Positions 37,672 through 40,505 of a DNA stretch of 64,000 bases are shown in pieces. The notes under the pieces were generated by a model. The model worked only from the letters and a program-made list of their open reading frames with translations, was not told the origin of the DNA and ran no database searches. Origin of the DNA: Deltaproteobacteria bacterium HGW-Deltaproteobacteria-19. Lineage in GTDB: Bacteria; Desulfobacterota; Syntrophia; Syntrophales; PHBD01. The stretch is taken from assembly GCA_002841865.1 (NCBI GenBank), contig PHBD01000009.1, positions 55,911 through 119,910 on the forward strand. Direction: 5' to 3'. Both the position numbers and the translations under genes were made by a program. The first letter of the stretch is position 1. The number at the start of each line of letters is the position of its first letter.

Positions 37672-37974
37672 TCACGAATCTCCCAGGATCGCCTTCCTGG
37701 CTTCCTGGAGCACATCGAAGCGGAAGGCCGGATATCCCGGGATTGTCTGGTTCAGGTATTTGTGCAGGTACTGGGTGTCGAAGAGAATCATCCGCTCATA
37801 CTCGGCAACTTTCCCGATCGGTTCGAGTTGGCGGTGGACCGCTTCGTGATAGAACGCTTCGATGCGACCGGTGTAGTCGTCCACCAGTTTTCGGAGGGAC
37901 GCCTCATCCATGTCCCCAAGCTTCCCGCGGGCCTTCAGATCATTGACCCACTGCTCCGCCGTTTCCTTGAACAT
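37672..37974 (-). CDS. hypothetical protein
   Basis: 100-aa ORF with balanced, non-Arg/Pro-rich composition, tightly spaced upstream of the MBL hydrolase. No motif recognised. Confidence 0.55.
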   Translation of the reverse strand: MFKETAEQWVNDLKARGKLGDMDEASLRKLVDDYTGRIEAFYHEAVHRQLEPIGKVAEYERMILFDTQYLHKYLNQTIPGYPAFRFDVLQEARKAILGDS

Positions 37975-38295: not shown

Positions 38296-38412
38296 TACGA
38301 GTCCAAGGCTGTTCAAAAATGCCCGCATGCAAGGCCCCCGAAGTCCCGAGACGTGAGGCGTACTTCTGGTACGTCGATTGGCGAGGGACGAGGGAAACGC
38401 CGCAGACGGGCT

Positions 38413-38434
38413 TTTTTCAACAGCCTGTCTGAAA
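38413..38434. repeat. 22-nt direct repeat, copy 2
   Basis: Identical to 38274-38295. Flanked by the complementary runs GGGCTTTTTT and AAAAAAAGCCCC. Confidence 0.8.
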
Positions 38435-38471
38435 AAAAGCCCCGCTAGGTTCATGTCTGTTCCAGGCGGGG
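38432..38471 (-). terminator. rho-independent terminator of the desulforedoxin-fusion gene
   Basis: On the minus strand: stem CCCCGC / GCGGGG, a rather large loop of about 20 nt, then T7. Confidence 0.5.
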
Positions 38472-38508
38472 ACTTTCTTTGTGTGATCGCTTCCGCAGTA
38501 ATGAATGA

Positions 38509-38859
38509 TTACTTCTTGCCTTTGGCGACTGCTTTTTTTGCCGGTGCCTTTGGCGCCGCTGCCGCTTTTTTTGCGGCGGGTTTTTTTGCGGCAGGCTTGG
38601 CAGCAGGCTTGGCAGCAGCCTTCTTGGCTACGGCCTTCTTGGGGGCGGCCTTCTTCGCGGCGGGTGCGGCTTTGGCAGCGGTGGCCTTGGCAGCGGGCTT
38701 CGGAGCCGCTTTTTTCGCGACGACGGCTTTTGCCTTGTTCATGGGTTTTCCCTGGCAGCATAGAATCTCGCCCACGCCGGTTCTGCCATACTCATCCACC
38801 ACAACGACCAATCCGCAAACCTCGCAACGAAATTTATCTCCCTTTTTTGCCTTTGCCAT
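38509..38859 (-). CDS. desulforedoxin-domain protein with Lys/Ala/Pro-rich histone-H1-like C-terminal tail
   Basis: The N-terminal 'KGDKFRCEVCGLVVVVDEYGRTGVGEILCCQGKPM' parallels desulforedoxin '[31 protein letters not shown]' (CxxC...CC). It is followed by about 75 aa of AKKAAPKPAAK-type repeats. Confidence 0.8.
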   Translation of the reverse strand: MAKAKKGDKFRCEVCGLVVVVDEYGRTGVGEILCCQGKPMNKAKAVVAKKAAPKPAAKATAAKAAPAAKKAAPKKAVAKKAAAKPAAKPAAKKPAAKKAAAAPKAPAKKAVAKGKK

Positions 38860-38951
38860 GCGTTTATCCCTCCTTCATGGATATGGAGTTGCCCTTCCTG
38901 ACAGGGTTTCCGCGATCACTGCCTTTCTCTATACGGAAAACGGCGAGATTT

Positions 38952-39830
38952 TCAAGATGTTTTCAACCCCAGACACTGATGAATCATCATCCCGATCTCA
39001 TCAGGCCTCTCCATGGGAATCAGGTGTCCCGCTCCCTCGACCAGGCGATAGGCGCCGCGCGGGAAGTGGCTTGCGGCTTTTTTCAGATCGATGAAGGAGC
39101 GATTTTCACTCTTCTCTCCCTCGATCACAAGAACCGGACAGGACACCTTTTCCAGGAACGGCCAGGGATTCAGGCGGTTTCCCCCCATGAACAGCGCCGC
39201 TTCCCGCCTGGGTGAGCAGGCCAGTTGCAGGCCGCCCGCGTCGGTTTCAAGAAAGCCGTACCGGATGTAGAGGTCCAGCATTTCCTCGTCCCAGGCCTCG
39301 AAAATTTTTCTGGAGCGAAGGTATTCCTTCACCTCCGCCGCGTCATGCCAGCCGTTCCGCCGTTTGATGGATTTGGAAGCCAGCGGGTGGTCTTCCACCC
39401 GCAAGTTCATCTCGTAGATCCCCTCGGGGAGAAAGATCGGCTCGATCAGGACGAGGCCCCGGGGAGCGAGACCGAACTTGGCGGCCGCAATGGTCATGAT
39501 GGTGGCGCCCATGGAATGGCCGACCAGGTATGGCCTGTCCAGGTGAAGCTGCCGGCAGAAAGTGGCCAGATCCTCGGCCAGGGTTTCCCAGGGGAGCCCC
39601 CCTTCGTCGGGATCCGCCGGGCGATGGTCGCAGAAATAGGGGGCCAGAACGCGGCAGGCCGGGGCAAGCCCCCGGGCGATGGGGTGCCACAGCCAGGGAA
39701 GGAAGCCCGTGGCGTGGAGCATGACCACGTCGGGCTCGCCCCCTTCATAGTAGAGATAATCCAGCCCGGCCCCCTCAACGGTTGTCCTGCGGACTTCCGG
39801 GAAAGGGTCTCGGTCTGCTCTTCCCGTCAT
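38952..39830 (-). CDS. alpha/beta hydrolase
   Basis: Nucleophile elbow 'VGHSMGA', and 'VVMLHATGF' in the oxyanion region. 292 aa. Confidence 0.8.
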   Translation of the reverse strand: MTGRADRDPFPEVRRTTVEGAGLDYLYYEGGEPDVVMLHATGFLPWLWHPIARGLAPACRVLAPYFCDHRPADPDEGGLPWETLAEDLATFCRQLHLDRPYLVGHSMGATIMTIAAAKFGLAPRGLVLIEPIFLPEGIYEMNLRVEDHPLASKSIKRRNGWHDAAEVKEYLRSRKIFEAWDEEMLDLYIRYGFLETDAGGLQLACSPRREAALFMGGNRLNPWPFLEKVSCPVLVIEGEKSENRSFIDLKKAASHFPRGAYRLVEGAGHLIPMERPDEIGMMIHQCLGLKTS

Positions 39831-40505
39831 GACCCGTTCACCCAGGTGACGATTTCCCCCATATCCGCCCGTTCCCGCGGAAACCGGTTCAGCGGTGCTT
39901 CATCGTCGGGTTGGCCGAGGACCACGCCCACGACGATCCGCTGCTCCTTCCGCACGGGAAGGAGTTTCCGGATCATGTCCGGATAGCTGACGGCGCAGGC
40001 CAGGATGCAGCTTCCCAGGTCCCGATCCCTGGCCAGGAGGCAGATCGTCTGGAGAAGCAGCCCGCAGTCCAGCATGGCGTATCCCTCCGGCAGGCTGCGG
40101 TCGGTGCACAGGATCAGAAGGACCGGGGCATCGAAAAGGGAAAACATGCGCACAGCGTAATCAAGACGCGCCTGCTTGTCCTCCCGCGGGATGGACTGTG
40201 CCTCCAGCACGACCCGGCCGGTGCCCGTGTAACGCCTCTTCAGGGCCTCCGGCCATTCCTGGGGCATCGGCGCTTCCGGTACGGCGGGAACACCCTTCAG
40301 GATTCAGGAAATTTTCACGATTCCCGGATCGGAAGGCCTCCAGTGCCTCGCCGGTGACCACGAAGATCTCCCAGGGCTGGGTGTTCCCCCAGGATGGGGC
40401 GTAGCAGGCGTCCTGCAGGATTTCCCCGATCAGCTCCCGGGGAACCGCTTCCCTGCGAAACTGGCGAATGCTCCGTCTTTCCCGGACGGCGGTGCGTAGT
40501 TCCAT
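39827..40505 (-). pseudogene. nitroreductase family gene split by a frameshift
   Basis: The N-terminal part (40505->40161, 'RRSIRQFRREAVPRELIGEILQDACYAPSWGNTQPWEIFVV') and the C-terminal part (40267->39827) are in different frames. Read upstream of its ATG, the C-terminal frame gives '..KGVPAVPEAPMPQEW', continuous with 'RENFLNPEG' of the N-terminal frame. Confidence 0.7.

Follow-up and report, generated by a model that had tools for sequence, protein, structure and literature searches.

A desulforedoxin-like core joined to a histone H1-like polycationic tail: a candidate nucleoid protein of syntrophic anaerobes

The window analysed here is a 64,000-nucleotide stretch of contig PHBD01000009.1 (assembly GCA_002841865.1, positions 55,911 to 119,910 of the forward strand) from Deltaproteobacteria bacterium HGW-Deltaproteobacteria-19, an uncultured syntrophic bacterium of the Syntrophales. 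One gene on its minus strand (Table 1) encodes a small protein in two parts, a desulforedoxin-like core and a long tail of lysine, alanine and proline that resembles the tails of histone H1-like proteins. Both modules are known, but their joining is a new, conserved, multi-phylum architecture that recurs widely in public metagenomes. Syntrophales have a key role as partners of methanogens, in sediments as in anaerobic digesters, and we know of no study of their chromatin proteins.

Table 1. Features of the gene and its flanks, in window coordinates (TRF, Tandem Repeats Finder; AF2, AlphaFold2)
Feature	Position	Strand	Details and basis
Complete coding sequence	38509..38859	-	ATG start, 116 aa + stop, 11.6 kDa, pI 10.4; program-made list of open reading frames
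Predicted metal-binding core of desulforedoxin fold, residues 1-42	38734..38859	-	MAKAKKGD..CxxCG..V.VDE...CC..PM; PF06397, family profile, AF2 core model
Codons of C12-x2-C15, first predicted ligand pair, then invariant G16	38815..38826	-	align to desulforedoxin Cys9/Cys12
Codons of adjacent C34-C35, second predicted ligand pair	38755..38760	-	align to desulforedoxin Cys28/Cys29; desulforedoxin hallmark
Lys/Ala/Pro tail, residues 43-116	38512..38733	-	four KPAA units; predicted disordered
Tandem DNA units, periods 12 and 15, in tail-coding region	38591..38696	.	TRF
Shine-Dalgarno AAGGAGG	38869..38875	-	9 nt 5' of ATG; read from sequence; invariant in 5 orthologous loci
Promoter-like TTGAAA-16 nt-TATAGA	38928..38955	-	overlaps stop codon of upstream hydrolase gene; inferred by eye from alignment of upstream regions
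Intrinsic-terminator-like hairpin (CCCCGC...GCGGGG stem), then U7 run	38432..38480	-	29 nt past stop codon; RNA fold

The predicted metal-binding core and its tail

The Pfam profile hidden Markov model (HMM) Desulfoferrod_N (PF06397) matches residues 4-42 over positions 1-35 of its 36, with a score of 31.4 bits against a gathering cutoff of 23, and the same profile is matched by 20 of 23 family members (E<=0.01). Used as a single-sequence query, the window protein has desulforedoxin from D. gigas as its best sequence match in the PDB (E=0.013), and a profile built from 13 family cores finds desulforedoxin 1cfw at E=2.7e-6, followed by desulfoferrodoxins (1dfx at E=3.7e-4). The four predicted ligand cysteines, C12, C15, C34 and C35, are invariant in family alignments of 23 and of 67 sequences; among the 67 diverse members G16 and M40 are also invariant and G7 and V21 nearly so.

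The SORGOdb paper gives the canonical desulforedoxin spacing of the ligand pairs as CXXC-X15-CC (PMC3116461), whereas the window protein has CxxC-x18-CC, and the family members that we inspected mostly have X17-X19. The longer spacing is due to a three-residue loop insertion, which both the HMM and the structural alignment absorb; the additional residues sit in the loop where most relatives have a CxC pair; the window protein no longer has that pair. An earlier note, made from the letters of this DNA, had seen a desulforedoxin domain with CxxC and CC that aligned nearly position for position with the D. gigas protein. The domain assignment is borne out by PF06397, the PDB searches, the predicted fold and the ligands, with two corrections: the x18 spacing, and the score of the stricter NCBIfam model TIGR00319, which at 20.7 falls under its cutoff of 36.05.

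AF2 modeled residues 1-45, on an alignment of the 67 diverse family cores, with a mean predicted local distance difference test (pLDDT) score of 85. The top Foldseek match of this model in the PDB is 1dxg_A, with a template-modeling (TM) score of 0.86 (target-normalised), a root-mean-square deviation (rmsd) of 1.5 Å and 45% identity; matches 2-6 are the N-terminal domains of five desulfoferrodoxin chains (rmsd 1.7-1.8 Å), and a clear score gap comes after them. The model is a monomer prediction. A full-length AF2 model (mean pLDDT 56) was useless for fold comparison, and the core-only model was used in its place. The Pfam scan found no superoxide reductase (SOR) domain, and TIGR00320 scored 17.2 against 146.9 bits, over residues 8-50 only, so the window protein is not a desulfoferrodoxin. 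At E<=1 that scan returned only PF06397 and a weak match to HC2, with no DksA-type family or other domain.

On its profile score above threshold, its ligands and its modeled fold, the predicted core can be placed in the desulforedoxin-domain superfamily as a divergent member, although it departs from the canonical spacing. Its lineage is distinct, marked by the lengthened loop, by a VDE motif and, in most members, by additional cysteines.

The tail is quite different in character. Residues 42-116 (75 aa) comprise 35 alanines, 25 lysines, 9 prolines, 4 valines, 1 threonine and 1 glycine, with no aspartate or glutamate and a net charge of +25, in agreement with the earlier description of the tail as H1-like in composition; no other such Lys/Ala/Pro stretch occurs in any frame of the window. 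In the full-length AF2 model it has no predicted secondary structure and a pLDDT of about 50. Models of H1-like proteins score below their cutoffs, at 16.4 versus 40 bits for Pfam HC2 (PF07382), 32 versus 80 for NF038053 (hist_H1_lk_Burk) and 15.7 versus 135 for NF038052 (Hc2). These matches are driven by composition; the tail resembles bacterial H1-like tails but, on these scores, fits no H1-like family by homology. The short tandem units that had been noticed in the DNA of the tail were also found by TRF, with 2.7 copies of period 12 (38591-38622), 3.7 of period 15 (38608-38663) and 1.9 of period 15 (38668-38696).

A family under selection, with the polycation on either side of the core

Repetitive, GC-rich DNA raises the question of whether a desulforedoxin-like reading frame simply runs on into low-complexity sequence through an assembly or annotation error. 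The repetitiveness of the tail-coding DNA and the frameshifts in the tails of some copies from metagenome-assembled genomes (MAGs; L036 and P0023) would fit such an error, but we give it practically no chance. The identical 116-aa protein is found on 8 contigs, and the four listed come from independent assemblies in four data sources, NCBI, ENA, JGI and Logan. In orthologs from four related species (L009-L012) the tail is kept in frame and all indels are multiples of 3; they map to the tail, where L009 has gained 15 nt and L012 has indels of 3 and 12 nt. Pairwise ratios of nonsynonymous to synonymous substitution (dN/dS) are 0-0.11 for the tail and 0.08-0.23 for the core, with dS up to 0.75, the architecture is kept in 49 bacterial species-level genomes, and a terminator-like hairpin lies right after the stop codon. 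These comparative data already rule out an artefact. By the same measures the tail is constrained at least as strongly as the metal domain, and we regard the fusion of core and tail as a genuine architecture under purifying selection. The earlier note would have taken the fusion as refuted if orthologs lacked the tail or had it in another frame; they have it, and in frame. Its suggestion that the tail may vary in length also holds, through the in-frame indels just described, but the variation is modest.

Two observations concern individual copies. The tails of L036 (5001-5339), P0023, P0028 and P0144 turn Gly/Glu/Arg-rich or otherwise unrelated part-way along, which is the signature of frameshifts in repetitive tail DNA, arising from either sequencing or assembly error or real slippage. 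L009, a 3.9-kb contig (LVBB01000089.1) labelled Phycisphaerales bacterium Planc_01, is 95% identical in the core, and its HtrA, nitroreductase and hydrolase genes are syntenic with those of Syntrophaceae loci; given this core identity and full synteny, it was probably mis-binned into a planctomycete MAG.

A word-index protein search returned 22 proteins, all with the same architecture, and scanning a single genome for each species yielded 67 loci, 49 of them usable bacterial loci and 14 from Bathyarchaeia; a comparison of domain architectures for the same fusion, as the earlier note had proposed, finds it repeatedly. The 49 bacterial loci belong mostly to Syntrophales, Syntrophaceae, Smithellaceae or MAGs unclassified beyond 'delta proteobacteria', and their proteins are 69-128 aa in length. 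The tails span 29-88 aa (median 63) and carry net charges of +13 to +33, with median contents of 36% lysine, 33% alanine, 9% proline and 0% aspartate plus glutamate; this composition is stable across the loci while sequence and length differ. The Bathyarchaeia proteins (L050, L052, L053, L055, L056, L060, L062, L065, L066, L068 and L070-L073) are little more than a core of about 45 aa, in which there are seven cysteines (CxxC...CxCxxC...CC), and end in a short KPKAKK-type stretch. Their extra cysteines suggest, on the motif, a second metal site or a cluster. An archaeal lineage and syntrophic bacteria thus have this small protein in common, possibly through transfer between co-resident anaerobes.

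When the core profile was run exhaustively against 1.84 billion cluster representatives, 365 proteins matched at E<=1e-3. The profile ranks its own family, with even the weakest of the best 150 of the 365 at 4.5e-7, ahead of desulforedoxin, which gets no better than 2.7e-6 in the far smaller PDB. In many members (for example P0055, P0078, P0097, P0099 and P0102) a basic segment rich in Lys, Ala, Pro and Thr lies N-terminal to the core. Among 263 family proteins with the motif, a sample enriched for C-tail forms by a second search, the basic tail is C-terminal in 153, N-terminal in 52, on both sides in 13 and on neither in 43; these 43 include many fragments, frameshifted copies, short archaeal-type forms or proteins with shorter basic ends. 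Members with N-terminal tails include MAG proteins from Chloroflexota (MBI4330704.1) and Nitrospiraceae (NLI30338.1). That the same core carries a polycation on either terminus points to core plus polycation as the functional, selected unit, and we consider this the strongest sequence-level argument for it.

Most relatives have 6-7 cysteines in about 25 residues, and a cysteine-rich metal buffer or chaperone (metallothionein-like, or a donor of Fe or Zn) with a tail that is incidental, serving for example solubility or turnover, would account for them. It would also suit a short paralog, L059, whose gene is directly downstream of that for a heavy-metal P-type ATPase with HMBD domains. We nevertheless hold this to be very improbable: only the four desulforedoxin ligands are kept in the window protein and in 28 of the 167 family members that were inspected first, which means that what the family conserves is not a high capacity for storing metal, and a tail as constrained as the core and found on either terminus is a misfit with an incidental appendage.

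Some Syntrophales genomes have two paralogs, L015 and L059 in MAG DAOTMG01 and P0012 and P0242 in Syntrophaceae PtaU1.Bin231; of the DAOTMG01 pair one has the long tail, whereas L059 has a short Arg/Lys tail and is more cysteine-rich and archaeal-like. P0044 and P0050 form a separate sub-architecture of the family, in which two desulforedoxin-like cores stand in tandem, the N-terminal segment is basic, and the linkers and C-termini are acidic.

Neither the 128 word-index protein matches nor the species-level genome scan gave a cultured host: all were MAGs or metagenome contigs, and isolates such as Syntrophus aciditrophicus SB were absent. In the acyl-proteome paper on S. aciditrophicus, histones appear only in the reference list. 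The NCBI names of family members are 'hypothetical protein' throughout, and the few automatic JGI labels ('ribonuclease E', 'TatB') merely mirror the low-complexity tail. Literature searches found no description of a desulforedoxin core fused to a histone-like or lysine-rich segment, also when combined with nucleoid, Syntrophus or Smithella, and none of the papers found to mention desulforedoxin deals with the fusion. In the literature and annotations that were searched the architecture is undescribed, in keeping with the earlier note, but it is no one-off: there are 365 cluster representatives, and two partial precedents, DdbA and the HTH-Dx-SOR class, are taken up below.

Flanking signals and gene neighbourhoods

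The gene comes with its own promoter-like element, Shine-Dalgarno sequence and terminator-like hairpin, and so looks like a self-contained transcription unit. The promoter-like element is our own reading and drew no call from a consensus scanner. That scanner did not call the hairpin either, apparently because of its internal loops; the RNA fold of 38395-38512 (minus strand) gives it -38 kcal/mol, with z=-2.66 against shuffled sequences. The 92-nt spacer to the preceding alpha/beta-hydrolase gene (38860-38951, minus strand) is 94% identical over five related species and better kept than the synonymous sites of the gene and of its flanking genes. A structured or riboswitch-like 5' leader was considered and rejected, as RNAalifold showed no compensatory pairs, and an Rfam scan of this region gave only a sub-threshold GcvB match on the opposite strand (21.5 versus 42 bits). 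With no covarying structure and no Rfam family, its conservation more likely reflects promoter and translation signals, with an operator as a further candidate. Two plus-strand open reading frames over the gene (38378-39094 and 38505-39215) were disregarded as antisense shadows of the GC-rich repeat. Downstream of the gene, a 100-aa reading frame at 37672-37974 (minus strand) has no Pfam or NCBIfam match; it is conserved, with 88-90% identity and synteny, solely within the window clade.

Across many Syntrophales, the window clade among them, co-oriented nitroreductase and alpha/beta-hydrolase genes precede the family gene; the NCBIfam scan gave the hydrolase no specific identity. We rejected an operon with these two genes. 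The gap varies from 18 to >250 nt, a GGDEF gene is inserted at some loci (L080-L082) and other clades differ; with the gene's own terminator and promoter-like site, this leads us to read the order as inherited rather than as functional coupling. The nitroreductase gene itself (39827-40505) is split in the window into overlapping 114- and 146-aa reading frames by a 7-nt tandem duplication (TCCTGAA TCCTGAA) at 40296-40309 (minus strand). The gene is intact, at 223 aa, on three otherwise near-identical contigs (L001, L002 and L004), and L002 differs from the window by that insertion alone over 11.3 kb; the split could mark a population variant or a pseudogene, or it could come from an assembly error.

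The neighbours vary from clade to clade. A rubrerythrin-like gene lies 3.7 kb upstream in the window, and rubrerythrin is just upstream in two Bathyarchaeia loci. In the Syntrophus clade the gene for thioredoxin-disulfide reductase TrxB (TIGR01292, 372 bits versus a cutoff of 343) is divergently adjacent, and a transglutaminase-like gene follows the family gene. In another large clade a 140-aa ferritin/bacterioferritin-like gene is directly downstream, at 16 loci by our tally (15 from the species-level scan plus L076), in a co-oriented block that continues in most loci with a PNPOx-like flavoprotein gene and in nearly all includes a MarR regulator gene (block noted at L014, L017, L026-L028, L030-L034, L036, L039, L063 and L076); this block looks like a small iron or oxidative-stress operon. 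The Chloroflexota copy has a thioredoxin-domain gene 1 nt past its stop codon and then a nitroreductase gene. The TrxB, ferritin-like, rubrerythrin and nitroreductase neighbours in separate lineages are suggestive of a redox or iron link, although no single partner gene is conserved across clades.

The earlier note had suggested two possible roles, a redox-sensitive nucleoid protein and a way of placing an electron carrier on DNA. These surroundings bear on the second, the idea of a DNA-tethered electron carrier or protective redox protein, in which an Fe(Cys)4 centre, redox-active like those of desulforedoxin and of centre I in desulfoferrodoxin, would be parked on DNA by the tail and would relay electrons with rubrerythrin, ferritin-like proteins, the thioredoxin system or nitroreductase, or would scavenge oxidants near the chromosome by a Dps-like logic. 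Domains of this fold are known only in proteins of electron transfer and of defence against reactive oxygen species (desulforedoxin and desulfoferrodoxin, or 2Fe-SOR, among PDB matches and SORGOdb classes), genes for TrxB, bacterioferritin/Dps-like proteins, rubrerythrin, thioredoxin-domain proteins and nitroreductase recur beside the family in separate lineages, and the HTH-Dx-SOR class is an earlier joining of such a centre to a DNA-binding module. However, neither SOR nor any other Pfam domain supplies a catalytic partner within the protein, the neighbours change from clade to clade with no conserved partner, and the predicted site could hold either Fe or Zn. To our knowledge the physiological role of desulforedoxin itself is not established, so its analogy carries little weight here. 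We consider an electron carrier of this kind unlikely.

Proposed function and comparison with known systems

By analogy with better-known proteins, we lean slightly towards a metal-clasped dimer whose two +25 tails would coat or bridge DNA non-specifically, and which would probably be nucleoid-associated. In outline, a small cytoplasmic metalloprotein would act as a non-specific binder of polyanions, most probably of DNA. Its core would hold one metal ion per chain, Fe as in desulforedoxin or Zn, and would form a tight homodimer; desulforedoxin is reportedly an obligate homodimer with one Fe(Cys)4 site per chain, according to the crystal-structure literature on 1DXG. Such a homodimer would present two polycationic tails per particle, able to coat or bridge DNA. 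Because so small a domain probably needs its metal site to fold, oxidation, metal loss or iron starvation would loosen the clasp and alter DNA binding, and the outcome would be a redox- or iron-responsive chromatin protein for strict anaerobes. A self-contained unit with a promoter-like element, a strong ribosome-binding site and a terminator is what one would expect for an abundant small structural protein.

Several points weigh against this proposal. DNA binding, metal identity and dimerisation are all drawn from analogy, and the sub-cutoff scores of the H1-like HMMs make the likeness to H1-like proteins compositional only. The fold match to 1DXG is not fully independent, as that structure predates AF2 training and was included in it. 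Most relatives carry 2-3 extra cysteines in the loop between the ligand pairs that the window protein does not have, so the ancestral metal chemistry may differ from that of desulforedoxin. Redox and iron genes are common in anaerobes, several of the associations described above are single evolutionary events in one clade, and the Nitrospiraceae copy and several Bathyarchaeia copies have unrelated housekeeping neighbours. Finally, the same kind of tail puts AlgP on polyphosphate granules, and DNA is thus not the sole candidate ligand.

This last point opens the way to a binder of some other polyanion, such as polyphosphate or polyhydroxyalkanoate (PHA) granules, RNA or ribosomes, or anionic membranes, with the core as only a dimerisation or oligomerisation knot. 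The KPAA-repeat tail of AlgP is required for the spacing of polyphosphate granules and the homologous tail of PhaF organises PHA granules (PMC9239181), so that nearly the same tail as that of the window protein, with its four KPAA units, serves granules; its placement on either side of the core also fits a generic electrostatic tether. On the other hand, AlgP and PhaF tails bind DNA in vitro, granule organisation is probably achieved by tethering to the nucleoid, and it is another domain that contacts the granule (PMC9239181). Here the sole other domain is the metal knot of 42 residues, which is not known to bind granules, and no polyphosphate kinase, PHA or ribosomal genes recur beside the gene in the neighbourhoods examined. 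We judge this improbable, if a little less so than the electron carrier.

Doubtful, and a shade more so than either of those alternatives, is the most elaborate version of a DNA-binding clasp: a redox-active Fe(Cys)4 dimer of desulforedoxin type that would act as an oxygen- or iron-sensitive clasp of two H1-like tails, with nucleoid compaction or DNA protection switched by redox state or iron, and that would be the founding example of a multi-phylum class of anaerobe chromatin proteins. If true, the desulforedoxin fold would for the first time have a clear role in physiology apart from superoxide reductase. If the protein is, more simply, a nucleoid protein, its metal knot would be a new type of structured core among the bacterial domains that carry H1-like tails, and through the metal site the packaging or protection of DNA could come under built-in control by redox state or iron. 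For a long time the desulforedoxin fold was known only from an isolated curiosity and from centre I of superoxide reductase; the family shows that it also has a lineage of its own, which is widespread. In Desulfobacterota (Syntrophales), Chloroflexota and Nitrospirota this lineage is almost always joined to a polycationic tail at one terminus or the other, whereas in Bathyarchaeia the basic end is merely short. The family could receive its own name and model. No long-standing question hinges on it; it offers a candidate metal- or redox-dependent nucleoid protein of syntrophic anaerobes, with a function proposed by analogy.

Compared with desulforedoxin (1DXG/1CFW) and centre I of desulfoferrodoxin (1DFX, 2JI1), the core shares the small fold, the four ligands with their adjacent Cys-Cys pair, and the flanking motifs GD-x-[YF]-x-C, CG and [PD]M. 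It differs in its x18 loop and in the VDE motif of its family, and the window protein adds a basic N-terminus (MAKAKKG) and a 75-residue polycationic tail and has no SOR domain. The Pseudomonas proteins AlgP and PhaF likewise carry a disordered, acid-free Lys/Ala/Pro tail with KPAA units on a small structured or oligomerising domain, but those domains are alpha-helical with no metal centre, and the tails are 2-3 times longer (the repeat region of AlgP is 154 aa); their likeness to the window tail is one of composition, with no homology demonstrable beyond that. The mycobacterial HupB/MDP1 combines a dimeric structured core with a basic Lys/Ala/Pro tail, as we propose for the window protein, and this 'eukaryotic-like' tail is indispensable for nucleoid function (PMC5676037). 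Its core, however, has the HU fold and itself binds DNA, whereas that of the window protein is a metal knot with no known DNA affinity.

Two systems come nearer in architecture. The Streptomyces protein DdbA (SCO2075) joins an H1-like domain to a DksA-like Cys4 zinc finger, condenses DNA in vitro and is nucleoid-associated (PMC3643593). Like the window protein it fuses a lysine-rich H1-like segment to a domain with a four-cysteine metal site, but its H1-like part is N-terminal and its metal domain is of the DksA type, a binder of the RNA-polymerase secondary channel that is unrelated to the desulforedoxin fold. The HTH-Dx-SOR class (for helix-turn-helix, desulforedoxin and superoxide reductase) comprises 19 proteins with a desulforedoxin centre and a DNA-binding module (PMC3116461), and so also unites the two in one polypeptide; there the DNA-binding part is a folded helix-turn-helix and a catalytic SOR domain is present, whereas the window protein has no catalytic domain and its candidate DNA binder is a disordered polycation. 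DdbA and the HTH-Dx-SOR class are the closest architectural precedents, and neither is the same combination.

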